Shown here one piece after another: positions 669 through 28,959 of a stretch of 32,000 bases of DNA. The DNA comes from Promethearchaeum syntrophicum (GTDB lineage: Archaea; Asgardarchaeota; Lokiarchaeia; Sigyniarchaeales; Promethearchaeaceae): positions 3,120,001 through 3,152,000 of the forward strand of contig NZ_CP042905.2 in NCBI RefSeq assembly GCF_008000775.2, written 5' to 3'. The notes beneath the pieces are model-generated. The model did no database searches and was not told where the DNA came from. It saw only the letters and a list, made by a program, of their open reading frames with translations. The position numbers and the translations under genes are program-made. The first letter of the stretch is position 1. Each line of letters opens with the position of its first letter.

Positions 669-1985
669 ATGATGGGGGATTTAATATTGGCGGATAAAAT
701 CAGCGCTTTTACCCGTTTTTTAAAATTTCAAGTGTTAATTATTGGTTTTATAAAAATGGGAGAATTCGTATTTTTCTTTTTTGAACAAAATTATATCAAT
801 TTATATGTTGAACAGATTTTGGGGAAAAGTGAATATTATGTCTCTTGGTTAGTCTCCCTTAGTGCCGTAATGGGTATAATTTTTCAATTTGTTTGGGGTG
901 TTATCAGTGATAATACACGGTCAAAGTATGGTCGAAGGCGTCCATTTTTTATCTTTGGAGGATTCCTTGCTGGGATATCTATGATTATATATGCGTTTTC
1001 AAAAAGCTATTGGTTATGTTTAATTTTAGACGGAATTATTATTGCTATTGGCACCAATGCTTATCTCGCTGCAGAACATTCTCTTATCCCGGATATATTT
1101 GAGAAAAAACTACGAGGGAGAGCAAATGGTATTATTTTTGTAATGGGTAATATCGGAATGGTTATTGCTTTAGCCCTATTTCTTATTACTGAAGAAATTT
1201 TTGGGTATGAAGGACCTCAAGGAGGGACCATTCTTGAATCAACAGGTTTTATATTATTACTAACAGTTGGAGGTGCATTTATCATTATTGGAGGTATTCT
1301 TGGATTTTTATTCGTTCGGGAAAAACCTACAGATGAACTTCAACCGAGAAAGACATTTAAAGCCGAAATGAAAGAGACATTTAGAGTAAGTGAATTAAAA
1401 AACCATAAGGAATTTGGAAAGAACATTTTAGCAAATATGGTTTTCAGAATTGGGTATTCGACTATTATGCCGTTTCTTTTCAGTTATATTTTCAGTTTGG
1501 GAATGGATTTAGTTGAACTTTTAATTTCCATAATGGTTGTATCATTTCCATTAGTTTTTATATTTACATACGTAATTGGGGTATTAAGTGATAAATATGG
1601 AAGGAAGAAATTCTTGATTATTACACTTTTTATTATGGCTTTAGGATTGAGTTTAGTTCCTCTTATTGGCGGACCAAGTGATTACAGTTATGCTTTGATC
1701 CTCCTTTGTTTTCCATTTATTATGATTACCCTTTTGGGTTTTGATGCTCCTATGAATTCTTGGACTCAAGATTTATTACCAGAAAATAAACGAGGACAAT
1801 TTATTGGAATAATGAATATAACCATGAATGTCCCCCAAATAATCGGTTCCTTTATAGCTGGTTATGTGGCTATAGAATACGGGAAACAATGGATATTTCC
1901 TACAGCAGGTGCATTCTTAATACTTTCGATCCCCTTTTTCCTTTGGATCAAAGATACTCTTGGTCCGAAATCAGATCCCGAATAA
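669..1985 (+). CDS. MFS transporter of the glycoside-pentoside-hexuronide (GPH)/sucrose-transporter-like type, probably an oligosaccharide or glycoside:cation symporter
   Basis: 438-aa ORF with about 12 hydrophobic segments. After TM2 it carries GVISDNTRSKYGRRRPFFIFG, the D-x-x-R-x-x-x-G-R-R-R-P signature typical of GPH/SLC45-like carriers. A second-half echo is GVLSDKYGRKKFL. Confidence 0.85.
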   Translation: MMGDLILADKISAFTRFLKFQVLIIGFIKMGEFVFFFFEQNYINLYVEQILGKSEYYVSWLVSLSAVMGIIFQFVWGVISDNTRSKYGRRRPFFIFGGFLAGISMIIYAFSKSYWLCLILDGIIIAIGTNAYLAAEHSLIPDIFEKKLRGRANGIIFVMGNIGMVIALALFLITEEIFGYEGPQGGTILESTGFILLLTVGGAFIIIGGILGFLFVREKPTDELQPRKTFKAEMKETFRVSELKNHKEFGKNILANMVFRIGYSTIMPFLFSYIFSLGMDLVELLISIMVVSFPLVFIFTYVIGVLSDKYGRKKFLIITLFIMALGLSLVPLIGGPSDYSYALILLCFPFIMITLLGFDAPMNSWTQDLLPENKRGQFIGIMNITMNVPQIIGSFIAGYVAIEYGKQWIFPTAGAFLILSIPFFLWIKDTLGPKSDPE

Positions 1986-2010
1986 TGTAAAATGAGCATC
2001 CTGATGGGTC

Positions 2011-2028
2011 TTCTTTTTTTTTTATTTT
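2011..2028 (+). terminator. Oligo-T tract (T10 then T4) 26 nt after the transporter stop; candidate archaeal-type intrinsic terminator
   Basis: The sequence ttcttttttttttatttt lies directly downstream of the stop at 1985. Oligo-T is the established archaeal termination signal, but in an AT-rich genome this is weak evidence. Confidence 0.3.
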
Positions 2029-2070
2029 AATGGGAAGATTATTATTGGTGAAGGGGAATATAATTTAAAT

Positions 2071-4086
2071 ATGGAAGAAGAATTTTTCAAAACGACCTCT
2101 GTGACTGATTTTAAATTGAAAAACATAGGGAATCCTCCTAGAGGATACAATATTCAAAGAAATCAAGATGTTTATTCTAAATTTCCATTTAAACCAGACT
2201 ATTCAGATCGTAAATCAGATTTTATCTCTCATTGCCTTCAAAATCCAGGGACTGATGCTATCAAAGGTTACTACTATGAATTGGTGCGAATTTCAGAAAA
2301 TCAGGGACCAATCTGGCAGGAATTAATTGAAAGTGCTTTAAATTATATCGATTCAAGGTTAGATTGTTCTGATTTTGTTCTCTTAGGAATAATGCGTTTA
2401 TACTGCCAACTCAGTCAAAAACCATTAGTGACCCCGAAAATTCTCCAACATTCAAAAAAAACCATCCTAATGTTTAAATATTGGCCTGATGAACCCGGAA
2501 ATGATTCAATGTGTTATTGGACCGAAAATCATCATATTATGTTTGCCGTGAATGAATATTTAGCAGGACAATTATTCCCAGATGAAATTTTCAGTAATTC
2601 TAAAATGTCAGGTAGAGAAAAAGTCACGAAAGCGAGTAAACGGATATTAAAATGGTTGGAATTGCGATTTTATACTGGATTCAATGAATGGTTATCAAAT
2701 ATTTATTTTGATGAAGATTTAACTGCCCTTCTTAATCTGATTGATTTTTGTAATGACACTGAAATAGTGAGGAAAGCAAAAATTATTGTGGATTTATTAC
2801 TCTTTGATATGGCACTAAATTCCTTTTATGGACAATTTGTTTCAACCCATGGACGGTGTTATGCAGCTGAAAAGAAAAATGCTTTGATAGAATCAACGAC
2901 TGATACCATGAAACTGGTATTTGGAATGGGCGTATTTGCGAACAATGATAATATGAGTGCAGTTACCCTAGCTTTAAGTGAGAAATATACTCCACCAGAA
3001 GTTCTTATAAGTATCGCATCTGACGTAAACAGATCAGAAATGCAAAATTTACAACGTGTGGGTATCAAAATAAGAGAAGCTGCAAAATGGGGTATAAATT
3101 ACAAGGATGTTGATAACGGATTGATCCTTCTTTCTTTTGAATCTTATGTTCATCCAAAAACAATTAATGTAATGGTAAAAATGCTCGATCGGTTTAGGTG
3201 GTGGGATAATCAATTCTTTCAAGAATTTGGACCCTTTAAACAAGCGTTGAGGATTGGGAAATATTTTGGTCTTACCATTTGCTTAGCTCTTATTTTTATA
3301 AAAGATTTAACTAGAAATACTCGAGAAGAAAATAATATCTATACTTATCGAACTCCTGATTATATGCTCAGTTCTTCTCAAGATTATCGAAAGGGCTATG
3401 GAGGGGATCAACAACATATTTGGCAAGCCACTCTTGGTCCAGAAGCAGTATGTTTTACAACACACCCGGGAGGGTATGAAAATACAGCACCTGAGGGATA
3501 TTGGTTAGGATCTGGTTATTTACCTCGCGTAGGCCAAGTGAAAAATGTTTTAATTTCAATATATAAAATTCCAAGGATGGGAGGAATATTGCTACGAAAA
3601 AATCTGCCATTTACCCATGCTTGGATCCCTAAAAACAAATTCGATGAAGTGATAGAAAGAAATGAATGGGTTTTTGCTCGATATCAAGAAGGTTATTTGG
3701 CACTTTTTTCTCAACATAAATATTACTGGCATCCCCAAGGGGGAGATAAAGATATGGAAATTATTGCCAATGGACGCCACAATATTTGGATTATGGAAAT
3801 GGGTCGAAAAGAAGATTATGGATCTTTTTCAGCTTTTGTTGATTCAATTTCATCATCAAACCTCAAGTTCGGTCGTCAGTCTGTCAAATATGCATCCCCG
3901 AGTCAAGGAAATCTAGAATTTGGATGGAATGGACATTTAAAACAAAATGGGAAAAAACTAAATCTAAAGAATTATCCTCGTTATGCGAATCCTTACTGTA
4001 AAACATCTTTTGGAGCCGAAAATATACATATTAAGCATTTAGATAAGGAAATATTTTTAGATTTTAATAAGGCAGGTAGAACCTAG
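2071..4086 (+). CDS. Cytoplasmic paralogue (671 aa) of an unassigned enzyme-like family; tentatively an (alpha/alpha)-toroid polysaccharide or oligosaccharide lyase-like protein (heparinase II/III or alginate-lyase-like)
   Basis: Long uninterrupted ORF with no N-terminal hydrophobic signal. It shares collinear blocks with the 9262-11313 protein: KYW..EP..D.M..WTENH, GF.EW.SNIYF, VDL..FD, THGR, SEKY.PP, YTYRTP.Y.LS..QDY.KG..G.Q.HIWQA.L, PGG, THA..P, SPSQG. The lyase call rests only on size, the N-H motif within a helical N-terminal half, and the KDG-pathway neighbourhood. The coding call is secure; the functional call is low confidence. Confidence 0.6.
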   Translation: MEEEFFKTTSVTDFKLKNIGNPPRGYNIQRNQDVYSKFPFKPDYSDRKSDFISHCLQNPGTDAIKGYYYELVRISENQGPIWQELIESALNYIDSRLDCSDFVLLGIMRLYCQLSQKPLVTPKILQHSKKTILMFKYWPDEPGNDSMCYWTENHHIMFAVNEYLAGQLFPDEIFSNSKMSGREKVTKASKRILKWLELRFYTGFNEWLSNIYFDEDLTALLNLIDFCNDTEIVRKAKIIVDLLLFDMALNSFYGQFVSTHGRCYAAEKKNALIESTTDTMKLVFGMGVFANNDNMSAVTLALSEKYTPPEVLISIASDVNRSEMQNLQRVGIKIREAAKWGINYKDVDNGLILLSFESYVHPKTINVMVKMLDRFRWWDNQFFQEFGPFKQALRIGKYFGLTICLALIFIKDLTRNTREENNIYTYRTPDYMLSSSQDYRKGYGGDQQHIWQATLGPEAVCFTTHPGGYENTAPEGYWLGSGYLPRVGQVKNVLISIYKIPRMGGILLRKNLPFTHAWIPKNKFDEVIERNEWVFARYQEGYLALFSQHKYYWHPQGGDKDMEIIANGRHNIWIMEMGRKEDYGSFSAFVDSISSSNLKFGRQSVKYASPSQGNLEFGWNGHLKQNGKKLNLKNYPRYANPYCKTSFGAENIHIKHLDKEIFLDFNKAGRT

Positions 4087-4092
4087 ATAAAT

Positions 4093-6111
4093 TCAATACT
4101 TTTTATTAAATATTTTCCGATCTTGGTATTGAGCCCAAATTTTTTCAAACCATACATTTACTTTTGGGATTGGACGACATTTAACCCATTGTGTTTCGAG
4201 TTTCAATTCTCCATAAACATTCCTACTATTAAAAATTTCTAAAATTTTATCATCTAAATTGAAATTACGCGGTTTTATGGGATATTTTTTAAGTTTTGGA
4301 TGATAAATGGATGCATTCTGATCATCTCCTTTATTGATTATTAAAAAGGATCCTCTACTTCCACCTTCATGCATAATATAGGTTTGAATGCTCATTAAAT
4401 AGGTTATTTGGCATATTAAAGCATCTAAGGTTTTCAAAGCGCCCAAAAGCTCTCTCCCGGAATTTACATGAATTTTAGAAAAGAATCTGTTTAAATCGTT
4501 CCGTGATATTTTTAAAATGTTGTTAATTTCAATTAAATTTCGAGTATAAGCTCCAGATTTCATCATTCGACTTTGAATCTTGTCCAAGAGATATATTTGG
4601 TTCGATTCAGGAGATTGTTCATCATTTTGGAATAATTTTATTAAGAGCGATAATAAGTGAGATTTTGTATTTATTGCATGAACTGAGAATTCTTCTGCAG
4701 TTAAGAATTCCTTCCATTTTCCATATGCGATTTTTTCAGCAACCCTAATTCCTCCTACTTGCCCTGAATTTAATGCTGATCCTCCCGGTCGATGAACTCC
4801 GTGGGATCCATTTACTTCTCCAATTGCAAATAAATGAGGGACTGAGGTTTCCCACCATATATCTCCCGAAATTCCCCCATTACAATGTTGAGCACAAACA
4901 CCAATCTCCAAAGGTTCTGTGTATAAATCAATTCCATTATTCTTATAAAGATTGATGGCTTCTGGGTTCATGTTAGACAATCTATCAATTGGAATAGTCT
5001 GAATTGCACCACTATTTTCTAAATATTCTTTTGCTTCAACACTAAGTTTTTCCCAATCAAATCCTGAGGGGTTTTGCATGAAATTCATGTAAACCTTACG
5101 ATTGCGTTCAATTCTCTCAACATGAATAGCCATGTCAATTAATGAAGAGCCATAATCAGCTATTCGTTCAACATTAAAAGGCCACTGATATCCTTTAAGA
5201 AAAATAGCATTTATCAATTTTTCAGTTGTTGGAAAATATTCTTGTAAAAATTCTCTTTGTTCAGTATTTGGATCTAAAATATCATCCTCAGCCGCGATCG
5301 AAAAATAACGAGGAATTACTTGCTGGTAACTACCACTTACATTCCATCGAAATTTCAGTGATGCTAATCCAAATTGGGATTCAGTCAAGTTTTGAAGTTT
5401 TGCACCTGCAGAAATTGCTAAACTGGTTGATCCCCATTGAGAATGAGGATAGACGGAATATTTGTACATCCCAGAAGGACCCCCTGTCGCTAAAATAATA
5501 AAATCTGATTGAATAATATTTAGGCTTTTATTCACTATATCTTTTGAGAGATCATCACATGATTCAATTTTGTTTAAATTAAGATAAATAAGACCACATA
5601 CCTTTCCTTTCTGATCTTTTATTATTTCCACAACCAAAGATTTATCTAGAATTTGGATGTTTCTTCTGCGAACTTCATTTAAAAGTAATTTTCCCATCTG
5701 TTGTGACGTTAAAGGTCCTGCTGACGTCCCTCTTTGTAATGGATCGTTATCAGTTTTATACCCAACATATGTACCATATTGATCATGGGGAAAAGAGACT
5801 CCAAGATTTACCAAATTCATAAAAGCTTGAACCGAGCATGTTGCTTCAATTAAAGCAATATCTCCATGCATAGACCCTCCATCAAAGAGCGTTTGGGCCA
5901 TTTTTGATGGAGAATCACGAATTTCTCCTCCAAGAGATAGTTTATAATACGTTTGTTTATCCGATCCAGCTTCAAAGGATGTCCCCCCTCCCAATTTTTC
6001 AGTAATAATTAAAATTTGGTCCGAGGGAATATTTCTTTTTACTAATTCAACAGCACAATTAAGCCCTGCAGCACCGCTACCAATGATTATGGTATGAAAT
6101 TGCGAATTCAT
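4093..6111 (-). CDS. FAD-dependent oxidoreductase of the fumarate reductase/succinate dehydrogenase/L-aspartate oxidase flavoprotein superfamily (FAD_binding_2-like), 672 aa
   Basis: N-terminal dinucleotide fold IIIGSGAAGLNCAVEL. C-proximal block AIGEVNGSHGVHRPGGSALNSGQVGG matches the G-x-N-R-L-G-G-N-S-L type motif of this superfamily. SD GAGGTGGA (reverse complement of 6117-6124) lies 5 nt before the ATG at 6111. Confidence 0.8.
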   Translation of the reverse strand: MNSQFHTIIIGSGAAGLNCAVELVKRNIPSDQILIITEKLGGGTSFEAGSDKQTYYKLSLGGEIRDSPSKMAQTLFDGGSMHGDIALIEATCSVQAFMNLVNLGVSFPHDQYGTYVGYKTDNDPLQRGTSAGPLTSQQMGKLLLNEVRRRNIQILDKSLVVEIIKDQKGKVCGLIYLNLNKIESCDDLSKDIVNKSLNIIQSDFIILATGGPSGMYKYSVYPHSQWGSTSLAISAGAKLQNLTESQFGLASLKFRWNVSGSYQQVIPRYFSIAAEDDILDPNTEQREFLQEYFPTTEKLINAIFLKGYQWPFNVERIADYGSSLIDMAIHVERIERNRKVYMNFMQNPSGFDWEKLSVEAKEYLENSGAIQTIPIDRLSNMNPEAINLYKNNGIDLYTEPLEIGVCAQHCNGGISGDIWWETSVPHLFAIGEVNGSHGVHRPGGSALNSGQVGGIRVAEKIAYGKWKEFLTAEEFSVHAINTKSHLLSLLIKLFQNDEQSPESNQIYLLDKIQSRMMKSGAYTRNLIEINNILKISRNDLNRFFSKIHVNSGRELLGALKTLDALICQITYLMSIQTYIMHEGGSRGSFLIINKGDDQNASIYHPKLKKYPIKPRNFNLDDKILEIFNSRNVYGELKLETQWVKCRPIPKVNVWFEKIWAQYQDRKIFNKKY

Positions 6112-6136
6112 TTAATTCCACCTCAGAGGAAATCCC

Positions 6137-6913
6137 TTAAAGCCTACGTATATGGAATCCACCATCAAGATTTAAAACTTGTCCAGTAGCATAGGGAATC
6201 AATCCTTCTGCTAAAGTTACAGCGGCTTTTCCTATATCTTTTGGATCCCCCCAACGTTTTATTGGTAAAATTCCTTCCCTAATTAATTTATCATATTTAG
6301 ATTTAACTCCATTAGTCATTGGAGTTTTTATTATCCCTGGTTGTATTTCATATACGGGAAAATCATATTCTGCCAAGCGATCGGCATAGAGTTTCGTCAT
6401 CATGGATAATCCCGCTTTGGAAATACAATATTCACCACGAGAGGTCGAGCTTGTAAAAGCAGATATACTTGAAATAGTTATTATTGAAGGATGATAGTTT
6501 TCAATATTTCCTTTTAGACGCAGTTCAATCATAAAATTAACTAATTGTTGGGTTAAAAAATAAGGTCCTTGTAGATTAATTTTTATCACATATTCAAAAT
6601 CTTCTTCAGAAGCTTCTAAAATATCTTTCCTCTCAGGAGGTGCAACCCCCGCATTATTTACCAGTACATCGATCCTTCCTATATTTTTCTTAATTGTCTC
6701 TATTAGGTTCTCACGAGATTCGCTGGAAGAGATATCACATTGAATAAACATGCTGGATTTTTCGTAATTCTCAAAAATATTTTCTTTTGGCTCATGTCGA
6801 GCACAAATGATAACATAATAATTTTTGGAAAGAAATTCATGAGCGATTCCTAATCCAATTCCTTGCGTTCCACCTGTAACCAATACTACTTTTTGATCAA
6901 TTTCTTCGTCCAT
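6137..6913 (-). CDS. Short-chain dehydrogenase/reductase (classical SDR); KduD/FabG-like keto-sugar-acid reductase is plausible from context
   Basis: The 258-aa protein carries VTGGTQGIGLGIA (TGxxxGxG), NNAG and the catalytic YCISK (YxxxK). SD GGAGAT lies 7 nt upstream of the ATG at 6913. Confidence 0.9.
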   Translation of the reverse strand: MDEEIDQKVVLVTGGTQGIGLGIAHEFLSKNYYVIICARHEPKENIFENYEKSSMFIQCDISSSESRENLIETIKKNIGRIDVLVNNAGVAPPERKDILEASEEDFEYVIKINLQGPYFLTQQLVNFMIELRLKGNIENYHPSIITISSISAFTSSTSRGEYCISKAGLSMMTKLYADRLAEYDFPVYEIQPGIIKTPMTNGVKSKYDKLIREGILPIKRWGDPKDIGKAAVTLAEGLIPYATGQVLNLDGGFHIRRL

Positions 6914-6940
6914 TTTTAAGATCTCCTTTTCTTTTTCTTA

Positions 6941-8326
6941 TTAATTATTCTCCCTTTTCTTTCCTTTAAAATATGGTAGATAAGTTTCTGAATCTCGAAT
7001 AACACATCCGGTAACACTACTTTTACGCATTAATTCAGTACATTTAGAACAAGTAATACAACCTTTATTTGGATTCAATGCATTTTTCAGAAGAATTTGT
7101 TGTCCAAATTCAGGGTTTGCAAATGCCATCCTTCCATATCCAATTATATCCACATTTCCTTGAGATACTTCATAAGCTGCTATATGAGGAGAATATTCCC
7201 GTAACCATGAATATCCTGTCCCAATAATTTTTATTTCTGAAGGAACGGAAGATTTTATTTTTCGAGTTAGATTTATAAATCGATAAACTCCCTGTAAAGG
7301 ATGTTCGTTAGGAAGATTTGCACCTTGTACGGGTTGATCAAATGGACGAGATATACTTGAATCGAAATATGGATTTCCAAGGGTTAAATTGAATAAATCC
7401 ATCCCAATTTCGTGCAAGTCTTTAATTAATTTGATTGGTTCCTCCAAATTTGGAACTGGAGGATATCTATCACTTATTTGTTTTTCTACGCCCCACCCAT
7501 AGGGATAAGGAATTCCGTCATAAATATTCATCCGAGAACAAATAAGAAACTTTTCAGAAGAAAATTGGGATACTATCTCTTTTATTATAGATATTAACCA
7601 TTTTGTTCGCGTTGTATAAGAATCTCCTCCATATTTTGAGTTTACACGAGTAAATGCACTCAGAGATTCATTTAATAAATATCGGTGGCAAATCTTGATA
7701 TCAACTCCATCAAAACCTATCTCTTTAGCTAATTTGGTAGTCTCTATGAATTGTGATTTTATTTCTTCTAATTCACTATCTGATAGGATTTTTCCATCTG
7801 ACAAAGTTTGGTGATAAGCATTATCTAAAGGTTCATAGGAATACATTCTTTGTGGAAATTTTATTCCAGGACGAGAATACCGTCCGGAATGGTTGAGTTG
7901 AAGAATTTTAATTGATTTTTTAAAAATTTCATTCTTCCTACTCAATTCTTCCTCGGATTTTTCCGCTTCGTGTATAATTGTTTGAAAAGCATTTTTATTT
8001 TCTTCGTTTAACATAAGTTGGTTAGGATTTGAACGACCTTGAGGAGTTATGGCAGTGGATTCATACCAAATAATTCCGACACCTGATAAACCAAATCTTT
8101 GATATCTTCTTTTAGTTAAACGAGAAGGAGAACCATTAGTTTTAGCATCACAACCTTCCATTGGATGAATACAAAGTCGGTTAGAAATATTTAAATCACG
8201 GATTTTCAGAGGTGCTTTAAGCGATTCCAAATTCGTGGATAAATTTATATCAAGTTTTAATTCCTCTATCTTTTTTTTAAGTTGATCCTTCGATTTAAAT
8301 TTAAAAATTTCATGCTTTTGGTTCAA
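6941..8326 (-). CDS. Old-yellow-enzyme / NADH:flavin oxidoreductase family TIM-barrel flavoenzyme (2-enoate or 2,4-dienoyl-CoA reductase-like N-terminal module) with a C-terminal Cys cluster
   Basis: The 461-aa protein carries IHPMEGCDA, IGFDGVDIKICHRYLLNESLS (compare the GFDGVEIH.AHGYL..QFLS consensus) and GYGRMAFANP. The C-terminal CITCSKCTELMRKSSVTGC resembles the Fe-S ligand patch of the enoate-reductase branch. TTG start follows an AAGGTAAT SD-like element. Confidence 0.8.
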   Translation of the reverse strand: MNQKHEIFKFKSKDQLKKKIEELKLDINLSTNLESLKAPLKIRDLNISNRLCIHPMEGCDAKTNGSPSRLTKRRYQRFGLSGVGIIWYESTAITPQGRSNPNQLMLNEENKNAFQTIIHEAEKSEEELSRKNEIFKKSIKILQLNHSGRYSRPGIKFPQRMYSYEPLDNAYHQTLSDGKILSDSELEEIKSQFIETTKLAKEIGFDGVDIKICHRYLLNESLSAFTRVNSKYGGDSYTTRTKWLISIIKEIVSQFSSEKFLICSRMNIYDGIPYPYGWGVEKQISDRYPPVPNLEEPIKLIKDLHEIGMDLFNLTLGNPYFDSSISRPFDQPVQGANLPNEHPLQGVYRFINLTRKIKSSVPSEIKIIGTGYSWLREYSPHIAAYEVSQGNVDIIGYGRMAFANPEFGQQILLKNALNPNKGCITCSKCTELMRKSSVTGCVIRDSETYLPYFKGKKRENN

Positions 8327-8384
8327 TTTGATTACCTTGGTTGGATTTGTTAACTTTTTTTTAGTTATTAATAATAAAAAATCT

Positions 8385-9245
8385 TTAGACGCTACCTAGA
8401 AGAAACATGAGAAACGCGATGAACACACTTATTCTTAGTAATATCATAATTGCTGGATTATATTTCTCATCCAATTTCAAAGAAAAGGTTAAAAAAGCAG
8501 CGATCCCATCACAAAATATAACAATTAGCATCGGAATTAGATAAAGCGTCGAATTATAGATGTTAAGGAAAATAGGCAGAGTAATACATATAATTGTAAC
8601 AATTTGTGCATAGAAAGCATTTCTTTGAGTTTTAATTGGACCATAAATCTTGATGAGGGGATTGATTTGATCCGCTTTTTCATTTTTTCGCACTTTGAAA
8701 CTACGAATTACCTCTTTCGAAAATTGGAGAGAAAATCCAGCAATAAAGAAAAGAATTATGTAGAAAGGTATATTCCAACCGTTCAGAGTTGCTCCATAAA
8801 AAAATCCAAAAGAGAACGAGAAGCTACTGATGATAATAACAAGGGTACTTCTATTTTCCATTTTTTTTCCGAAAAAGATTGATAGATTCCAAATAATTCC
8901 AATTAAAATCATGGAAATAATATTGAAAACACCAATATCATAGATTATTGAGTGAAGAAGTGCGAGAACAAAGGCACTGGAATAAAAAATACCACAAAAG
9001 ATTAATATTAATAGAGGATTTTTTAATTCATTTGTGGTCTCTTCATCCATTGATTGCAACCAAAGTGCGAGTAACATTCCAGATATTGCTAATAAAAAGT
9101 AAGTTGGCACACCTATATAGATATTAATACTGACTCTTCCCATTCCTATCTCCATTCGGGTATTTAATATACCAAAAAGTGTCAATATACTAGCAGCCAT
9201 CCAATTAAATGGTTTTAAAGTGCGGAAGATTTCTTTTTTGTTCAT
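8385..9245 (-). CDS. Polytopic membrane protein (about 8-9 TM), possibly a divergent UbiA-fold protein whose Asp-rich motifs are not conserved
   Basis: I prefer ATG at 9245 (MNKKEIFRTLKPFNW...), which follows GGAGAG, over the track start at 9290, which overlaps the upstream gene. The topology and the loop ...KEVIRSFKVRKNEKADQINPLIKIYGPIKT... loosely recall UbiA prenyltransferases. The expected NDxxDxxxD motif is replaced by QSMDEETTNE. Confidence 0.55.
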   Translation of the reverse strand: MNKKEIFRTLKPFNWMAASILTLFGILNTRMEIGMGRVSINIYIGVPTYFLLAISGMLLALWLQSMDEETTNELKNPLLILIFCGIFYSSAFVLALLHSIIYDIGVFNIISMILIGIIWNLSIFFGKKMENRSTLVIIISSFSFSFGFFYGATLNGWNIPFYIILFFIAGFSLQFSKEVIRSFKVRKNEKADQINPLIKIYGPIKTQRNAFYAQIVTIICITLPIFLNIYNSTLYLIPMLIVIFCDGIAAFLTFSLKLDEKYNPAIMILLRISVFIAFLMFLLGSV

Positions 9246-9261
9246 AATTTTCACTCTCCAA

Positions 9262-11313
9262 TTAAGAAATTGAATAAGTACGAGTCGCATTTTCGAAATC
9301 CAATTCTAATGTTTGAGATTCGAATTCAATGAGTGTAGTATTTGTTCCAAATATTTGATAACAAAAATCGTTATCAAATCGGGGAAATGGGCCTAAATCT
9401 ACCTCTGAACCATTTGAAGTCATTGGTCCATCCCATGCGACAGTGATAATTCCTTGGGAAGGAGAATCATAAACTATATCAAATCCTACTGCCAATTGGT
9501 TCACTTTTACTTCCGCATCTAAAATTTCTTCAATGAATGCATCAAAAGTTGCATAATCCTCAACATTCGCTAATTCTACGATGTAAGCATTTTTTTTTCC
9601 GAAAGATTTGAGTTCAATATCAGATTCCCAATGTGTTTTCTCATGAGAATAGAGGGCAATGTAACTATCGTTTTTAGAACCAAAGGTCCATTTTCCATGC
9701 TGTTCAACCGAATCAAAAGCCCATTGAGGAAAATAAGCATGAGTATATGGTTTAAACTCAAGATAAAGAAATACTATTTCACCTATCAACGAAGTTGCTA
9801 ATCGATCATATTGGAATATACCAACATTTTCATGTAATGTTGCTCTAGGTTTCCACCCGCCTGTGAATTCTTGAGGACTTACACCTCCAGGAGAATTTGT
9901 ATAGACAATGGCAGTTTCATCTAAACTTGCTTGCCAGATATGTTCTTGTAATCCAGCCATTCCTTTATGATAATCTTGAGCACCTGAAAGCTGATAATAT
10001 GGAGTCCGATAGGTATAGGTACTTACAGATTCTAAACACGTTCCTTGGGTTACAATCTTTAATTTTTCACAAAATTCACTGAGTGTGGTTCCATGAATCG
10101 TCCCCCCAATATTTAGGAGATCTAAAAACATAGCATCATTAAAAATTAACTTTGTTTTAATGTCATATTCTTCCATTAATCTTACAGATGCATCAATTAT
10201 TGGAGATGAGGCAGGAGCTGACATTGGCCACCAAAACATAAGATCATCTTCGGATGTATAACCCAAGCCGTAAGTAGGACCATCAGCTAAATTTAAACTA
10301 CTCCTTTCTTTATGTTCATTGTTGGTAGCTGCAAATTCAGCGATATCTTCTAAAATAGGAGGTGGAACGTATTTTTCGCTAGCTGCAATTGAAATTGCAC
10401 CGCGGTTATTTCCATCATTGATATTATGTTTGCCTATTCCAAGTAATACCCATGCAGATTCAGAGGGAGATTCTCGACTTGCCGGAGAATCTATTGAAGT
10501 TCCCACTTGTCGACTATCCTCTGTACGTCCATGGGTGGTTGCGTAGATGCTGTGGTAAAAATTATTTGCAAAATCAAAAGCAATGAGATCTACTAACATC
10601 ATAGCTTTAGTGGAAATGGATTCATCTTTGGAAAATTCAACTAAATTCATTAAAGCGATTAAATCTAATGTAAAATAAATATTCGAATGCCATTCTGAAA
10701 ATCCAAATTGAGCACGCCACCCTATCCAACGATTTATCAAAGGAATTGCATGATTAACATGCTCAATACCAGTCATATTTGAATTTGTAAAAGTCTCGTT
10801 TGGATATAATTGTCCAGCCAACAATTCGGCAGTGTGAAAAAGAATCATATGATTTTCTGTCCAAAATATCATATTATCTGAGTTAGGTTCAGTGAACCAA
10901 TATTTAAAATCAAGAACAGTTTGCTTTAAATCCATTTTCAATTCAGAACTTAGAATGTGTGTTACATTATCAAAGTAGAGCATTCGTAAATATGCGTTTA
11001 CATCAAAATCTGAAGTATCTTCAAAGTTATTTACATCCTCAAGAGTATTTCGTATAATAGTTTCATTTATGGGTAATCCTAGATAAATCCGTGCTACTTG
11101 GGCATGAAACCCATTATTTTCATGGGTACCATTAAGATAAAATTTTTGGCGTTCAGTGAAATTAAGATGTGGATATTGTTGTAAATCTTTAAAATAATTT
11201 GTATTTTGAGATTTCGGAGCATTTATGCTAAATTCAGTTAAAGAAAATATAGGAATGAGCATAACTGCTAAAATCACACTAATTTTCGCAAATTTTTCTG
11301 TTAATTTTTTCAT
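9262..11313 (-). CDS. Secreted or membrane-anchored paralogue (683 aa) of the 2071-4086 family; tentatively an extracellular polysaccharide lyase-like enzyme
   Basis: N-terminal MKKLTEKFAKISVILAVMLIPIFSLTEFS is a signal peptide or anchor. It shares the same collinear conserved blocks as the 671-aa paralogue. It has about ten N-x-S/T sequons (NFT, NGT, NET, NVT, NET, NMT, NDS, NTT, NAT...) against about four in the cytoplasmic copy. SD AGGGTAAT precedes the ATG at 11313. Confidence 0.6.
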   Translation of the reverse strand: MKKLTEKFAKISVILAVMLIPIFSLTEFSINAPKSQNTNYFKDLQQYPHLNFTERQKFYLNGTHENNGFHAQVARIYLGLPINETIIRNTLEDVNNFEDTSDFDVNAYLRMLYFDNVTHILSSELKMDLKQTVLDFKYWFTEPNSDNMIFWTENHMILFHTAELLAGQLYPNETFTNSNMTGIEHVNHAIPLINRWIGWRAQFGFSEWHSNIYFTLDLIALMNLVEFSKDESISTKAMMLVDLIAFDFANNFYHSIYATTHGRTEDSRQVGTSIDSPASRESPSESAWVLLGIGKHNINDGNNRGAISIAASEKYVPPPILEDIAEFAATNNEHKERSSLNLADGPTYGLGYTSEDDLMFWWPMSAPASSPIIDASVRLMEEYDIKTKLIFNDAMFLDLLNIGGTIHGTTLSEFCEKLKIVTQGTCLESVSTYTYRTPYYQLSGAQDYHKGMAGLQEHIWQASLDETAIVYTNSPGGVSPQEFTGGWKPRATLHENVGIFQYDRLATSLIGEIVFLYLEFKPYTHAYFPQWAFDSVEQHGKWTFGSKNDSYIALYSHEKTHWESDIELKSFGKKNAYIVELANVEDYATFDAFIEEILDAEVKVNQLAVGFDIVYDSPSQGIITVAWDGPMTSNGSEVDLGPFPRFDNDFCYQIFGTNTTLIEFESQTLELDFENATRTYSIS

Positions 11314-11374
11314 ATATCTAAATTACCCTTTAAATTCAAAAATATTTACATATTTAGTTGATAATTATGATATC
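11314..11374. promoter_or_regulatory. Divergent promoter region between the minus-strand redox/lyase-like operon and the plus-strand eda-kdgK operon
   Basis: This is a 61-nt A/T-rich spacer. tttacata at 11345-11352 resembles the archaeal TATA consensus TTTAWATA. It sits about 25-30 nt before the eda ATG at 11375, which has no SD and may be leaderless. The evidence is weak because the whole window is AT-rich. Confidence 0.3.
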
Positions 11375-12013
11375 ATGAATTATTTTTCAGAAACCCTAAA
11401 AAAATATTTTTTAATCCCAGTTGTTTCAATTGAGAGTTTAGATAAAATTGCTCCACTGACACAAACATTGCAAGCGGCCGGTATAAAGTTTCTGGAAATA
11501 ACCTATCGTAATAAAAATGCGAGTGAAGCCCTTAAAATTCTTCAAAATAATAATTTTAATATGATAATTGGAGCAGGAACGATTCGAACTCTTGCCCAAG
11601 CAGAGGAAGCAATAAAATATGGAGCTAAATTTTTGGTGAGTCCTGGATTTAATAAAGAAATTATACATTTTGCTGCAAAACGGAATATTCCATTTGTTCC
11701 AGGTGTCGACTCTACCCTAAGTATTGAATTAGCTAATTCAGAAGGAATTAGTTTGTTAAAATTTTTTCCAGCAGAGATATCTGGAGGCATAAAATGGTTG
11801 AAATCTATTAAAGGACCATATCATGAAATAAAATTTATTCCCACAGGAGGGATTACTCTTGAAAATTTGGATCTCTACGTTAAACTAACGAATGTTGCAG
11901 GGATCGGAGGATCATTTCTTGCCCCTAAAAGGCTCATCTTGGAAGATAATTGGGATGAAATAGCTTTAATCTGCACGAAAGCAATAAAAATAGTTGAATT
12001 AGCTAGAGGATAA
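11375..12013 (+). CDS. eda: 2-keto-3-deoxy-6-phosphogluconate (KDPG) / KHG aldolase, Eda type (class I)
   Basis: LEITYRN, GAGTIRT, FLVSPGF, PGVDSTLSIE, and LLKFFPAEISGGIKWLKSIKGPYHEIKFIPTGGI...GIGGSFLAP align almost residue-for-residue with E. coli Eda (..[36 protein letters not shown]), including the Schiff-base Lys context. I use ATG 11375 rather than the track start 11225, which overlaps the divergent gene. Confidence 0.9.
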   Translation: MNYFSETLKKYFLIPVVSIESLDKIAPLTQTLQAAGIKFLEITYRNKNASEALKILQNNNFNMIIGAGTIRTLAQAEEAIKYGAKFLVSPGFNKEIIHFAAKRNIPFVPGVDSTLSIELANSEGISLLKFFPAEISGGIKWLKSIKGPYHEIKFIPTGGITLENLDLYVKLTNVAGIGGSFLAPKRLILEDNWDEIALICTKAIKIVELARG

Positions 12014-12055
12014 ATATTAATTACTTAAAAAATGAAGAGAAATGTGACTTAAAAT

Positions 12056-13093
12056 ATGAGAAATTATGTAGTAACCTTAGGAGAAATAATGCTTAGGTTA
12101 AAATCACCTAATTTTGAACGTTTGCTTCAAAATCCGGTATTAAAAGCAAGTTTTGGAGGAAGCGAATCTAATGTAGCTATTTCACTCGCAAATTTCGGTA
12201 TACCGTCTCGATTTGTTAGCGCACTCCCTAACAATCAGCTGGGTTTGGCAGTAATTAGATTCTTGAAATCAATGAATGTGGATACCTCGTATATCCAAAT
12301 GCAAGGGACTCGCTTAGGAACATATTATTTAGAGACTGGATCAGGTCCACGCCCTTCAAAGGTGATCTATGATCGTTCAAATTCAAGTATTTCACAAGCT
12401 AAAACAGAAGATTTTGATTGGGATTTAATTTTCAAAGATGTAAAATGGTTTCATATATCTGGTATTACACCAGCTTTATCTCAAAAATCTGCTGATATAT
12501 CCCTTAGTGCGATTAAGTTTGCGAGGAATTTGGGTATAAATATCTCGTGCGATTTAAATTATCGTAAAAATTTATGGAATTACGGAAAACCAGCGAAAGA
12601 AGTAATGGGGAAAATAGTACCACTTATTGATATTATTATTGCCAATGAAGAAGATCTTCAAAAATCCTTAGGAATTGAAGAGGATCAAATAATTGGAACT
12701 GAGAATTTAGATCCCCAAAAATATGAAAAAATGTTGAAAAAAGTTTCGGAACAATTTCCAAATATAAAAATAATAGCAACAACGCTTCGGGAAAGTTTTT
12801 CAGCAGATCACAATGATTGGAGTGCATTATGTTATGAAAAAGCAACAAATACAACTTTTTTCTCAAGAAAATATGCACTAAAAAATATCGTCGATAGGGT
12901 TGGAGCAGGGGATGCCTTCGCAGGTGGGTTTATTTACGGAATCTATTCTAAATTGGATATTCAAGGTGCTTTAGAATTTGCGGTAGCCGCTTCTACTTTA
13001 AAACATACGATTCCAGGAGATATTAACCGTGTATCTATTAAAGAAGTAAAGAATTTTTTAGAAGGGGAATCATCTGGACGTGTTCAGCGTTGA
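12056..13093 (+). CDS. kdgK: 2-keto-3-deoxygluconate kinase (PfkB/ribokinase family)
   Basis: The 345-aa protein has an N-terminal GEIMLRL...FGGSESNVA. It carries the PfkB signature DRVGAGDAFAGGFIYG near the C-terminus. It lies immediately downstream of eda. Confidence 0.85.
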   Translation: MRNYVVTLGEIMLRLKSPNFERLLQNPVLKASFGGSESNVAISLANFGIPSRFVSALPNNQLGLAVIRFLKSMNVDTSYIQMQGTRLGTYYLETGSGPRPSKVIYDRSNSSISQAKTEDFDWDLIFKDVKWFHISGITPALSQKSADISLSAIKFARNLGINISCDLNYRKNLWNYGKPAKEVMGKIVPLIDIIIANEEDLQKSLGIEEDQIIGTENLDPQKYEKMLKKVSEQFPNIKIIATTLRESFSADHNDWSALCYEKATNTTFFSRKYALKNIVDRVGAGDAFAGGFIYGIYSKLDIQGALEFAVAASTLKHTIPGDINRVSIKEVKNFLEGESSGRVQR

Positions 13094-13127
13094 ATCAAGA
13101 ATGTAAAAGAAAAGAGAGGGTAAAATT

Positions 13128-14267
13128 TTGGGTAGAAAGAAATTAAAATATGGAATGGTAGGTTATGGATTAATGGGATGGGGCCATACCCTTGAATTAA
13201 AATTTTCCCCAAAATTGAGAGGGAGAACTAATTTTATTGCTTGTTTTGATCCCAGTCCAAAACAACAAGCAAAATTGAAAAAAAGAAGAAATGTTAAAGT
13301 TGCAGAATCATTCGAGGATTTATTGGATACCCCTGGAATTGAAGCTTTAATCATAAGTAGCCCTCCTCAGTTTCATGCAGAGCAAGTTATTGCAGGGTTA
13401 GAAGCGGGATTACATATTTACTCAGAGGTTCCTATGGCGATAAAGGAAGATGATATCAAGCGAATTATCGATGCAGAAGAGAAATCGAAAGGGATATATC
13501 AATATGGAGAAAATTATGTTTTTCTTTCTGAAGTATTGTATGCAGCCCATCTTTCTTCAAGCGGAAAAATAGGTCCTACAGTATATGCTGAAAGTGAATA
13601 TCTCCATGATGTTACCTATCGATGGCGACAGGATCATAAGGGAGGACCCGAAACACCTCGTATTGAGTCATGGTATTCCCTTATAGAACCGATGGAATAT
13701 GCGCACACAATTGGGCCAGCACAAGTGGCATTAGGAAGTCTTGAATCGCCAATGCCATTTATCGAAGTTAAAAGTTACAGCAATTCTATTGGTGGATTTA
13801 ATGGAGATCCTATTTGTCGCCCCTCAAGTTCTTTTCAAGTTGCTTTATTTAAAACAGAAACAGATGCGATAGCAAAATGTGCAAATGCTTATATCTTTGC
13901 TCGTGAACCAACGCGAATGACATTACAGCTTACTGGGAGAACCGGAACCTATGAATGTTATCGTATAGGGAGAGCAGGGAGGTTATTTCTTGCTGATGAT
14001 CATATTATTAAATTTCGGCACAGAAAAGGACGTGCATACAGGATTGGACCAATGGCTTTATCTCGAGTTGTACCTTGGAGGTTAGGTACCTATTTTGGAG
14101 CTCAACCCCGAATTTTTGATGATTGGTTATCTGCTATTGAAACAAACACACAACCCTCTCTCCATGCAAAAGTTGCCGCAAATATGTGTATGGCTGGAAT
14201 CTATGCTGCAAAAAGTGCCCAACAAAATAAAACCATAGAGATTCCAGTATTTTCTTCAAAAATGTAG
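13128..14267 (+). CDS. Gfo/Idh/MocA-family NAD(P)-dependent oxidoreductase
   Basis: N-terminal Rossmann strand LKYGMVGYGLMGWGH. It also has ISSPPQFHAEQ (compare the P...H consensus) and EVPMA (the EKP-like motif). TTG start follows a GAGAGGGTAAA SD-like element. Confidence 0.8.
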   Translation: MGRKKLKYGMVGYGLMGWGHTLELKFSPKLRGRTNFIACFDPSPKQQAKLKKRRNVKVAESFEDLLDTPGIEALIISSPPQFHAEQVIAGLEAGLHIYSEVPMAIKEDDIKRIIDAEEKSKGIYQYGENYVFLSEVLYAAHLSSSGKIGPTVYAESEYLHDVTYRWRQDHKGGPETPRIESWYSLIEPMEYAHTIGPAQVALGSLESPMPFIEVKSYSNSIGGFNGDPICRPSSSFQVALFKTETDAIAKCANAYIFAREPTRMTLQLTGRTGTYECYRIGRAGRLFLADDHIIKFRHRKGRAYRIGPMALSRVVPWRLGTYFGAQPRIFDDWLSAIETNTQPSLHAKVAANMCMAGIYAAKSAQQNKTIEIPVFSSKM

Positions 14268-14338: not shown

Positions 14339-15541
14339 ATGAAAAAACCGTTTTTTCCTTTAGCGGTTCTGTTATTTTTAATTTCGATCTCAACTATCGC
14401 TGCGTTAACCGCTAATGATTCTCCTATTCTTGTAGAGGGGGCTGATTGTGTGGGATATCACGGTAACACATTCTTAAAAACTTCTTCACAGTTGAATTAT
14501 GGAGGAGCAGCTCATGTAGATGAAGAATTAGAATTTTCAATTGATTTTTACATCTTAGCGAATGGGATGATATTTAATGCAACTGTCGAATTATATAATT
14601 TTCCTGGAGATCTAACTATTCAAGAGGGGCAATCCCAACAGAATAAGTCCGAAATGAATTTCGATAGTTTCACACCCACGTGGAAAATTTCTGGAAATAT
14701 TGAGGGAAATTTCACTTTTAGTATCAAATCTACAGTCACCGTTAAATACATACCTTACCATTCGAATTATATAGCCACTTATGAATATCTCCACACCGGG
14801 TCATTCGCTGTATCAGAAAATCCTAACGATCCCCCATATTTATTAGATAATTCACAAGAAGAAGAAGGAATTAAGCCTCCATTTGATTGGAAAATTGTCC
14901 TTGGTCAGATTTTAGGGTTTTTTTCAATAATTTTAATATATTTTTGCATTCAATTGGGTATACCTGAAAGAAAGGCATGGATCCGAAAAAAAATGGGTTG
15001 GTCTGCCAAGCATTTAAGAGAAACTCATTGCGATTTAGGTTATTTGGCGATGGCAACCATTATTCTCCATAATATCATTTTATCTCTATCCTCATTATGG
15101 GGGTTCTATTTTAAATGGTTTCAATTTTATCCTACATTTTACGTTTTCAGAGAGGGATGGAATGGTATATTCGTGGGATTGGATTTGGCAGTATTTGGAT
15201 CACTTATCTTTATAATTGCTACAATAACGGGAACATTTTTCAAAAAGATAGCGAGAAAATTCGGATTCCGAACTGCCATTTTTACTCAACAGATTTCTTA
15301 CATTGCTTTAATCATATCAGTAATTCATGCTATCTTAAATGGTTCATGGACAAGGGATTACCCAATTCTCTTGATCATACAAATAATTATGGTAGCAGAA
15401 GTCCTTATTTCCCGTTTAATTGCGTATGCTCATGCTTATGATTTGAAATTAAGTAAAATCAAACCTGCGTCTGATCTTGAAAAAGCTTCTGATGAAATTG
15501 CAATCGAAATTTCACAAGATGAGTTTGATAGGAGTCAATAA
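14339..15541 (+). CDS. Membrane protein with a signal peptide, a ~170-aa extracytoplasmic domain and a C-terminal multi-helix domain resembling the ferric-reductase/MsrQ (YedZ)-type heme-b transmembrane domain
   Basis: Signal peptide MKKPFFPLAVLLFLISISTIAALTA. The extracellular part carries sequons (NAT, NKS, NFT). The helix ...KHLRETHCDLGYLAMATIILHNI has two His separated by 13 residues, the H-x13-H spacing of ferric-reductase-domain heme ligands. A further helix carries a His (LIISVIHAILNG). The fold assignment is tentative. Confidence 0.6.
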   Translation: MKKPFFPLAVLLFLISISTIAALTANDSPILVEGADCVGYHGNTFLKTSSQLNYGGAAHVDEELEFSIDFYILANGMIFNATVELYNFPGDLTIQEGQSQQNKSEMNFDSFTPTWKISGNIEGNFTFSIKSTVTVKYIPYHSNYIATYEYLHTGSFAVSENPNDPPYLLDNSQEEEGIKPPFDWKIVLGQILGFFSIILIYFCIQLGIPERKAWIRKKMGWSAKHLRETHCDLGYLAMATIILHNIILSLSSLWGFYFKWFQFYPTFYVFREGWNGIFVGLDLAVFGSLIFIIATITGTFFKKIARKFGFRTAIFTQQISYIALIISVIHAILNGSWTRDYPILLIIQIIMVAEVLISRLIAYAHAYDLKLSKIKPASDLEKASDEIAIEISQDEFDRSQ

Positions 15542-15545
15542 ATGT

Positions 15546-16013
15546 ATGTGGTTACTCATTCTTCATGTTTTCATTAATGTTCTAGGATTAGTTTTTCTCA
15601 TGGCAGGTTCTTTTCAAATTTTGATTAGTTCTAGCAAAAATTCATCAACCATCCAATCGGAGGAATTAGATAATTCTTTCATAGAAAATAACAATGGAAA
15701 ATCAAAAGAAGTTCGAAAGAGTAAAAATAAATTAATTGAAATAGGTTGGTATTTGTATACTTTTGGAGTTATTTTGGGTGCATTTCAAGCTAAAATAACA
15801 GTTGGATATTATTGGACTTGGGATCTTAAGGAAATTTTTAGTCTACTATCCATTCTTGGATATTTTAGCTATATAATAATAGAAATGAAATGGAATAAAC
15901 GAGTTAAACAATTTCTAATTTTAATTAGTTTGATACTGACTATTATCACTGTGATTATTCCCGCTATCGCTTATTCTTACCACAATCCATTTACTTTAAT
16001 TGGATTTAGCTGA
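15546..16013 (+). CDS. Minimal (155 aa, about 4 TM) cytochrome-c-assembly/heme-handling protein of the CcsA/ResC type (WWD domain)
   Basis: GAFQAKITVGYYWTWDLKEIFSLLS matches the core of the CcsA tryptophan-rich motif (..WG.YW.WDPKE.W..). There is a His in TM1 (LILHVF) and a His after the last TM (AYSYHNPF). I prefer ATG 15546, which starts 4 nt after the upstream stop codon ends and has GGAG 12 nt upstream, over the overlapping TTG at 15477. Confidence 0.65.
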   Translation: MWLLILHVFINVLGLVFLMAGSFQILISSSKNSSTIQSEELDNSFIENNNGKSKEVRKSKNKLIEIGWYLYTFGVILGAFQAKITVGYYWTWDLKEIFSLLSILGYFSYIIIEMKWNKRVKQFLILISLILTIITVIIPAIAYSYHNPFTLIGFS

Positions 16014-16132
16014 TTCATTTTTGATTTTTTCAAGAATATTTAATTTATACTATGGAAATTGGATTTTTTTTCCCATTTAATTCCCAATTTGTAAAAAAAA
16101 AAGCTAAAAAGCTAAAAATCATTGGTAAACTT

Positions 16133-18391: not shown

Positions 18392-18403
18392 GGTGGAAAA
18401 AAA

Positions 18404-28952: not shown

Positions 28953-28959
28953 AGATAAG

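Follow-up and report, generated by a model that had tools for sequence, protein, structure and literature searches.

We analyzed a stretch of 32,000 nucleotides from the Asgard archaeon Promethearchaeum syntrophicum (contig NZ_CP042905.2, positions 3,120,001 to 3,152,000 of the forward strand; hereafter, the window), which encodes two divergent members of a large and unassigned protein family. We refer to these proteins as A (open reading frame (ORF) 2071-4086 on the forward strand; 671 aa) and B (ORF 9262-11313 on the reverse strand; 683 aa). Our best reading is that A and B act inside and outside the cell, respectively, as paired uronate beta-eliminases (lyases or dehydratases) of a hitherto undescribed family, and we put the probability of the pathway proposed below, taken as a whole, at roughly 0.55. 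The reading builds on direct observations, namely, the homology between A and B, the fold class, the localization signals, the conserved residues, the gene neighborhoods, and the gene fusions. The strongest functional evidence is the genomic context, in which the link to family GH88 is foremost.

Two Paralogs of an Unassigned Family

A previous interpretation made from the letters alone (hereafter, the sequence-only reading) had reported two paralogous ORFs with a series of shared blocks in this AT-rich window (~32% G+C). Both ORFs were found where they had been reported, and every block quoted was located in the two proteins in the same order. These include TENH (residues 151-154 in A and 152-155 in B) and the blocks that start with SNIY (residue 209 in A and 210 in B), THGR (259 and 260), SEKY (303 and 312), YTYRTP (424 and 433), HIWQA (449 and 458), and SPSQG (609 and 617). 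A full-length BLASTP comparison of A and B gave 218/683 identities (32%) and 53% similarity, which is far beyond chance (E = 1e-114).

The family had been described as unassigned, and the database searches bear this out. Pfam gave no match for A or B at E ≤ 0.01 and none for 41 diverse members even at E ≤ 5, and NCBIfam gave none for A or B. Searches of PDB sequences at E ≤ 10 with A, B, the 41-sequence profile, and the C-terminal domain alone returned nothing credible; the lone match, between A and a 24-kDa NADH dehydrogenase subunit, is at chance level (E = 0.14). Among the individual models, Alginate_lyase, Hepar_II_III, Hepar_II_III_N, and DUF4962, which we take to cover the polysaccharide lyase (PL) families PL5, PL12, PL15, PL17, and PL21, had no match in A or B at E ≤ 0.01 or in the 41 members at E ≤ 5, and the profile search of PDB sequences, among which are lyases of these families, had no hit to them at E ≤ 10. 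The same was true of the PL8 models (Lyase_8_N, Lyase_8, and Lyase_8_C), and the PDB profile search did not recover PL8 either. The glycoside hydrolase (GH) family GH154 enzyme BcGDH (PDB 9nwf) was unmatched by A, B, or the family profile in the PDB sequence search.

Of the 1.84 billion cluster representatives searched with a family profile, 4,109 reached E ≤ 1e-3 and 1,271 reached E ≤ 1e-30. At the 50% identity level, the family has at least 4,109 representatives. Public records label the members "hypothetical protein," and two A-type entries in UniProt (from Exilibacterium and Ca. Lokiarchaeum ossiferum) were automatically named "Heparin-sulfate lyase N-terminal domain-containing protein," which we counted as support. 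A literature search found no paper on the family or its named members. Taken together, the family is probably new at the sequence level, with a fold that is known and a chemistry that probably is, as judged from comparison with Pfam, NCBIfam, and PDB; PL33, PL34, PL37, and PL40 have no Pfam models or structures, and CAZy may already list the family. The founding members of PL33 are ALJ61728.1 and AHF90976.1 (PMC6442616).

Genomic Context and the Link to GH88

GH88 enzymes are unsaturated glucuronyl hydrolases, which are specific for 4,5-unsaturated glucuronyl residues, and to our knowledge such substrates arise only by beta-elimination at a uronate. 2-Keto-3-deoxygluconate (KDG) kinase and 2-keto-3-deoxy-6-phosphogluconate (KDPG) aldolase form the end of unsaturated-uronate catabolism. 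Either lyases or oligosaccharide dehydratases, a recently described group (PMC8511951; PMC12269599), can perform the beta-elimination that yields GH88 substrates. The A/B family is tied to this chemistry because its members are found next to GH88 genes, are fused to GH88 domains, and are accompanied by KDG kinase and KDPG aldolase. Together with a transporter of the MFS_2 type, this context points to uronate chemistry, which we count in favor of the lyase-type chemistry guessed in the sequence-only reading.

Among the four bacterial A-type loci examined, three (those of Vallitalea, Exilibacterium, and a spirochete) have a GH88 gene directly upstream with overlapping gene ends. An MFS_2 transporter gene adjoins in these three loci, and a TetR regulator gene is present in two of them. 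Genes for a GH1 enzyme and a xylose-isomerase-like TIM protein adjoin in the Exilibacterium and spirochete loci, and GH2 genes are located near the family in two loci. Fusions between the family and GH88 were found in five of the 50%-identity cluster representatives, with both domain orders; the gene context of one such fusion (P0257) was uninformative. Co-localization with GH88 or GH105, which is the hallmark of GH154, is thus seen here as adjacency to and fusion with GH88, and is to be read as a functional analogy rather than as membership in GH154.

In Ca. L. ossiferum, the A ortholog is located beside genes for the aldolase, the kinase, a Gfo/Idh/MocA oxidoreductase, and a major facilitator superfamily (MFS) transporter, and a B-type gene with the same membrane protein partner as in the window is found 4 kb away. 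KDG kinase and KDPG aldolase genes adjoin A or B in this species and in Promethearchaeum metagenome-assembled genomes (MAGs) as well. Transporters of the MFS_2 type accompany the family in loci L001, L003, L004, L005, L007, and L008, and an MFS transporter does so in L002. We fetched 23 loci with B-type genes (L009-L031), and the membrane protein gene follows the B-type gene in 16 of these, often overlapping it, and also in L002 and L007; homologs of this membrane protein are located at L002:18325-19179, L006:12087-12821, and L007:12174-12968. The flavoprotein is syntenic in L007, L008, L010, L015, L018, L020, and L031. In Asgard loci, no neighbor accompanies A and B more constantly than the Gfo/Idh/MocA oxidoreductase, which adjoins in L002, L007, L009, L010, and L017. 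A set composed of an old-yellow-enzyme-like (OYE-like) enzyme, a short-chain dehydrogenase (SDR), the flavoprotein, and the Gfo/Idh/MocA oxidoreductase recurs in the seven loci listed for the flavoprotein; it accompanies B, and sometimes A, on Asgard and bacterial-looking contigs that lack GH88, and it does not fit into the standard pathway for uronates. We speculate that this set may replace GH88 by some reductive route.

Predicted Fold

The structure of A was modeled using AlphaFold on the 41-sequence alignment, with domain limits assigned by DSSP, and compared with PDB using Foldseek. The model has a mean predicted local distance difference test score (pLDDT) of 91.0 and a predicted template modeling score of 0.93. 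Helices occupy residues ~44-415 and are followed by an all-beta region at ~421-664, so that the model has a helical toroid-like domain followed by an antiparallel beta-sandwich. The full-length model had 15 matches at E ≤ 1e-3. Polysaccharide lyases with this two-domain plan account for all of the 16 best entries, among them PL15 Atu3025 (E = 4e-5), PL17 Alg17c, PL35 GAGases, and the hyaluronate and chondroitin AC/ABC lyases of PL8. The first unrelated match is a WD40 protein (E = 7e-3, probability 0.15).

Conserved Residues and Candidate Active Site

Conservation was counted over 356 aligned members that include distant representatives (A numbering is used). The Asn-His, Tyr, and Arg positions highlighted in the sequence-only reading are among the most conserved: N153 (351/356), H154 (353/356), Y212 (351/356), and R262 (353/356, preceded by G261 at 99%). 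Two glutamates are at least as strictly kept, namely, E152 (356/356) and E206 (355/356), the latter just upstream of the SNIY motif. Other highly conserved residues are S209 (347/356), Y306 (349/356), Q447 (349/356), and W451 (343/356), and D98, D101, and D241 are likewise among the most conserved polar positions. In the beta-domain, Y424 (296/356), Y426, H449 (315/356), Y498, and H516 are conserved less strictly; in the region of the YTYRTP and HIWQA motifs, the model has strands at 421-427 and 451-454. Y212 follows His154 by 58 residues, or one helical hairpin in the model.

In PL17 lyases, an adjacent Asn-His pair neutralizes the substrate carboxylate, and one Tyr of the barrel and one further on serve as acid and base (PMC12336832). 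By analogy, the Asn-His/Tyr pattern of the present family appears to resemble the PL17 active site.

Localization of A and B

The sequence-only reading had assigned a hydrophobic signal or anchor to the 683-aa protein only, and a Kyte-Doolittle scan agrees. The best 19-residue window of the B N-terminus starts at residue 8 and scores 2.16, whereas nothing comparable exists in A. A hydrophobic N-terminus was found in 5% of 131 A-clade sequences and 90% of 128 B-clade sequences; the contrast is therefore a property of the two clades, and the proposed outside/inside split is maintained across both.

B has 10 N-x-S/T sequons and A has four, in line with the roughly twofold difference noted earlier. 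The excess within B alone is not significant (10 compared with 6.4 expected from composition, p ~ 0.09), and the part of that observation that holds beyond the two counts is the enrichment in the B clade: 120 B-type relatives have 1068 sequons and 721 are expected (ratio 1.48), whereas the observed/expected ratio in 120 A-type relatives is 0.90. B is probably N-glycosylated; we rejected the stronger statement that its sequon excess proves glycosylation, given that the excess is significant for the clade and not for the single protein.

Distribution and Evolution of the Family

The A type is mainly bacterial and the B type is mainly Asgard-archaeal. The best matches of A are proteins of Lokiarchaeia/Promethearchaeota with 66-90% identity (78% for Ca. 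L. ossiferum), and these are followed at 50-59% identity by proteins from a broad range of bacteria, including spirochetes, Desulfobacterota, Gammaproteobacteria (Exilibacterium and Agarilytica), and the firmicute Vallitalea. Based on the latter level of identity to many bacterial proteins, gene exchange with bacteria likely occurred for A. The named relatives of B are almost all from Asgard archaea (Loki-, Thor-, Hermod-, Hel-, Heimdall-, Hod-, and Sigynarchaeota), and the closest is from a Promethearchaeum sp. MAG (88% identity).

A few B-type genes are located on bacterial-looking contigs, namely, L008, which has LacI, OEP, RND, and P-II genes, and L015, which was binned as Bacteriovoracaceae. 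The B-type protein of L008 has a lipoprotein-like N-terminus. Both contigs have A- and B-type genes in tandem (L008:7863-12097 and L015:4232-8685), which suggests that both genes were transferred together between bacteria and Asgard archaea. Given the separate clades and the tandem occurrence elsewhere, A and B represent two old subfamilies, and a recent local duplication was rejected.

Several other members (P0252, P0375, P0369, P0338, P0312, and P0315) are fused to PI-PLC-C1, GDPD plus PLAT, Exo_endo_phos (endonuclease/exonuclease/phosphatase), or S-layer homology (SLH) repeats. Speculatively, the fusions to phosphodiesterase-type domains might hint at substrates among glycolipids with glucuronate in the head group.

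Proposed Pathway and Alternative Explanations

In the pathway that we favor, A and B would beta-eliminate at uronic-acid residues to give a 4,5-unsaturated uronate. N153/H154 and R262 are candidates for neutralizing the carboxylate, after which the C5 proton would be removed and the O4 substituent would leave; Y212 is the acid/base candidate, possibly together with residues from the first sandwich strands. B, exported or anchored, would attack an acidic glycan outside the cell, and the MFS transporter would import the fragments. In the cytoplasm, A would finish these fragments exolytically, releasing terminal uronates as 4,5-unsaturated monomers. The released unsaturated uronate is expected to open spontaneously, and either the SDR or the Gfo/Idh/MocA oxidoreductase would convert the resulting open-chain keto-uronate to KDG by reduction. 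The PfkB kinase would then phosphorylate KDG, and the KDPG aldolase would cleave the product to glyceraldehyde-3-phosphate and pyruvate. The A-type enzyme of many bacteria may instead leave an unsaturated non-reducing end on its product for GH88 to hydrolyze.

Several observations weigh against this pathway. There is no GH88, KduI, or other canonical unsaturated-uronate enzyme in the window, and the OYE-like enzyme, the FAD flavoprotein, and the membrane protein, which are all conserved neighbors, have no place in the scheme. Neither the Pfam nor the PDB searches connected the family to any PL family by sequence or profile, and the literature search found no measured activity for any family member. 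The two invariant glutamates (E152 and E206) would also suit a glycoside hydrolase center. The structural matches are weak (E 4e-5 to 1e-3, 7-10% identity, and template modeling (TM) scores of 0.2-0.35), and because they are remote we took them as evidence for the fold class only. When the helical domain of B (residues 36-431) was modeled alone (pLDDT 91.6), Foldseek found no significant neighbor in PDB, the best being BcGDH (9nwf; E = 0.16), and the weak matches are a mix of lyases, a dehydratase, terpene cyclases, and toroid hydrolases, with heparinase III (4fnv) included. The resemblance to lyases therefore rests on the two-domain architecture. The guess of an alpha/alpha toroid plus a beta-sandwich in the sequence-only reading is largely borne out: it agrees with the two-domain model and its only significant neighbors, which belong to PL15, PL8, PL35, and PL17, whereas the helical domain by itself has no significant PDB counterpart.

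A serious alternative, missed by the sequence-only reading, is that the family, mainly its A type, consists of uronate oligosaccharide dehydratases. Such enzymes would abstract the C5 proton and eliminate water at C4 of a glucuronate or iduronate that forms a saturated non-reducing end, yielding a 4,5-unsaturated residue for GH88, and hence no glucuronidase would be needed. Two unrelated families that are defined by co-localization with GH88/GH105 do so, namely, P29_PDnc (WP_038530528.1) in ulvan loci (PMC8511951) and GH154/BcGDH (PMC12269599), and the tight adjacency to and fusion with GH88 seen here represent the same hallmark. Moreover, several of the bacterial loci resemble glucuronide operons (TetR, MFS_2, and GH2), and BcGDH is the best PDB match of the helical domain, albeit a non-significant one. 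However, an exported B type would make little sense under this explanation for polymer depolymerization, the Asgard loci examined have neither GH88 nor GH105, no sequence relation to the GH154 structures in PDB was found, and the full-length fold is closest to the depolymerizing lyases. We consider dehydration unlikely overall, although it is the most credible of the competing explanations.

It is less likely that the proteins are glycoside hydrolases, in which an (alpha/alpha)6-type domain with E152 and E206 as acid and base would remove the neutral sugar that is exposed once GH88 has taken the unsaturated uronate. The near-complete invariance of both glutamates would be explained, glycosidases are frequent among the neighbors (GH1, GH2, GH4, and a GH67-like protein), and the helical domain alone is about as weakly similar to toroid hydrolases as to lyases. 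Nevertheless, all Foldseek matches of the full-length model at E ≤ 1e-3 are lyases, with GH127 and GH92 appearing only at E > 0.1, and the Asn-His/Tyr/Arg set is a lyase signature. The linkage is to KDG kinase and KDPG aldolase and not to a uronate isomerase or to mannonate or altronate enzymes, which also fits unsaturated uronates better.

Finally, the role might not be catabolic: together with its membrane partner, B would modify the envelope of the cell itself or a glycan attached to a lipid, acting, for instance, as a trimming lyase or a C5-epimerase (dermatan-sulfate epimerase is an epimerase with the same fold class). Such a role would account for the almost pan-Asgard occurrence of the B type, its tie to a UbiA-like polytopic membrane protein, and the fusion of other family branches to SLH or lipid phosphodiesterase-type domains. 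It is improbable, given that the neighbors of B include dehydrogenases, KDG kinase, KDPG aldolase, and a sugar transporter, that B lies beside LacI or TetR regulators in bacterial-looking contigs, and that A-type relatives belong to clearly catabolic operons.

Organization of the Locus

A, B, and their neighbors occupy positions 669-14267 (Table 1), and the remainder of the window is unrelated.

Table 1. Features of the A/B locus (positions within the window; motif residues in the numbering of the respective protein).
Feature	Position	Strand	Evidence and remarks
MFS (sugar/MFS_2-like) transporter, upstream of A	669..1985	+	Pfam MFS_1 1.3e-47, MFS_2 7e-16; proposed oligosaccharide importer
Paralog A	2071..4086	+	Predicted cytoplasmic; helical domain ~44-415, beta-sandwich ~421-664; ORF and AlphaFold model
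TENH motif of A, residues 151-154	2521..2532	+	Candidate carboxylate-neutralizing/catalytic Asn-His and invariant Glu; just before helix 155-168
SNIY motif of A, residues 209-212	2695..2706	+	Candidate catalytic Tyr at start of helix 210-226
THGR motif of A, residues 259-262	2845..2856	+	Near-invariant Arg262
First beta-sandwich strands of A (YTYRTP ... HIWQA), residues 424-453	3340..3429	+	Conserved polar face of second domain
Flavoprotein, 672 aa, fumarate reductase/L-aspartate oxidase-like (FAD_binding_2)	4093..6111	-	Pfam, NCBIfam; PDB relatives distant
SDR	6137..6913	-	adh_short_C2 3.8e-48; PRK12745 298 bits, above cut-off
OYE-like FMN oxidoreductase	6941..8326	-	Oxidored_FMN 1.1e-22; PDB ene-reductases ~1e-16
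Membrane protein, ~8 transmembrane segments, directly downstream of B	8385..9245	-	Longest ORF 8385-9290 overlaps B end
Paralog B	9262..11313	-	Predicted exported or membrane-anchored; same motifs as A; subfamily spans Asgard lineages
Hydrophobic N-terminal segment of B, residues 8-26, preceded by Lys-rich residues 2-7	11236..11292	-	Signal peptide or signal anchor
KDPG/KHG aldolase	11375..12013	+	Pfam Aldolase 9.6e-58; listed ORF from 11225 overlaps B on opposite strand
PfkB-family KDG/KDGal kinase	12056..13093	+	PfkB 4.4e-35; KHG/KDPG aldolase/sugar kinase fusion model, kinase part, 5.5e-133; KDG_KDGal_kin_Halo 1.2e-68
Gfo/Idh/MocA oxidoreductase	13128..14267	+	Pfam 1.6e-18; best PDB relatives DgpA and inositol dehydrogenases, all distant

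The SDR is a candidate for the enzyme (KduD-like or DEH-reductase-like) that would reduce the unsaturated uronate, once opened, to KDG; the KduD models of NCBIfam match it at E = 7e-42, yet below their cut-off. The UbiA-like signals of the membrane protein are faint, with E = 0.0025 for an NCBIfam model (UbiA/DGGGP-synthase-like) and E = 8e-4 for Pfam UbiA in one of four members. The aldolase probably starts at the Met at 11375, because the Pfam match begins at residue 56 of the listed ORF; this start would leave a divergent intergenic region of 61 bp between the aldolase gene and B. The aldolase ortholog in Ca. L. ossiferum has 216 aa. PDB searches with the flavoprotein, OYE-like, and Gfo/Idh/MocA neighbors gave distant generic relatives at most.

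Beyond this locus, positions 14339-16013 (+) encode a protein of 400 aa that has a signal peptide, C-terminal transmembrane segments, and several sequons but no Pfam match, and an overlapping 178-aa ORF matches a cytochrome c assembly (CcsA/ResC-like) family; these may be two genes or one gene split by a frameshift. Positions 16052-21337 (+) encode a NuoE-like protein (2Fe-2S), a NuoF-like protein (FMN, Fe-S), and a 977-aa fusion of 2Fe-2S, GltD-like pyridine-nucleotide oxidoreductase, and NuoG-like ferredoxin domains. These three adjacent genes appear to encode a soluble module that is NAD(P)H-linked, possibly electron-bifurcating, and unrelated to A and B. At 27051-30111 (+), a gene for a Ser/Thr protein kinase of the eukaryotic type (633 aa; Cys-rich repeats at the N-terminus) precedes one for a calcineurin-like metallophosphatase (383 aa).

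Implications and Comparison With Known Systems

With at least 4,109 representatives and no curated entry, assigning a function to this family could annotate thousands of genes. If the favored pathway is true, a new sequence family would join the lyase and dehydratase partners of GH88, which are now reshaping ideas on the removal of terminal uronates. For Asgard biology, the exported branch is of interest for its presence in most Asgard lineages in a conserved locus. In a more far-reaching and tentative picture, the proteins would constitute a very large third family of uronate beta-eliminases, independent of the others, with an exported branch that is near-universal in Asgard archaea and forms a fixed module with the UbiA-like membrane protein and the OYE-like, fumarate-reductase-like, and Gfo/Idh/MocA oxidoreductases. 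Such a module, occurring where GH88 is absent, might serve an undescribed, possibly reductive route for 4,5-unsaturated uronates in anaerobes, and Asgard archaea might be primary degraders of acidic glycans.

Among the known systems, heparinase II/III-type lyases (PL12 and PL21) and dermatan-sulfate epimerase share the fold class, and two A-type members are named in UniProt after the heparin-sulfate lyase N-terminal domain. The differences are that Hepar_II_III, Hepar_II_III_N, and DUF4962 are unmatched in the 41 members and that there is no epimerase-type context.

The catalytic His and Tyr of PL8 enzymes are close in sequence, whereas the candidate His and Tyr of the present family are 58 residues apart. 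The glycosaminoglycan lyases of PL8 and PL35 (hyaluronate and chondroitin AC/ABC lyases; GAGase II/VII, PDB 8khv/8khw) have the same toroid plus sandwich (PMC12269599) and were matched by Foldseek at E 1e-4 to 1e-3. They also act upstream of GH88, to which the present family is fused or adjacent. However, the family lacks the Lyase_8 Pfam domains, and the window has no partners of the glycosaminoglycan type (for example, sulfatases or hexosaminidases).

GH154/BcGDH (PDB 9nwf and 9o4u) and P29_PDnc resemble the family in their association with GH88/GH105, which is their defining genomic hallmark, and a lyase-like chemistry on a terminal uronate has been proposed for them (PMC12269599, PMC8511951). 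BcGDH differs in being a single 385-aa toroid without a sandwich and has no sequence relation to the family, whose B subfamily is predicted to be exported.

The PL15/PL17 oligo-alginate lyases (Atu3025, PDB 3a0o/3afl; Alg17c, PDB 4nei) differ from the family in having no detectable sequence or profile similarity to it (7-8% identity in structural alignments, TM ~0.2), in the two invariant glutamates found here, and in their partners, which are PL6/PL7 endolyases rather than GH88 or flavoenzymes. Nevertheless, they have a helical toroid followed by an antiparallel beta-sandwich and were top or high Foldseek matches. The PL17 arrangement of Asn-His and two tyrosines (PMC12336832) has a likely parallel here in the invariant Asn-His, the Tyr one hairpin later, and the Tyr/His residues in the first sandwich strands. 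The PL15/PL17 enzymes act exolytically in the cytoplasm after import and feed an SDR reductase, KDG kinase, and KDPG aldolase, and the layout of the window matches this arrangement. By these analogies, the family would work most like the PL15/PL17 oligo-uronate lyases or the dehydratases that prime substrates for GH88.

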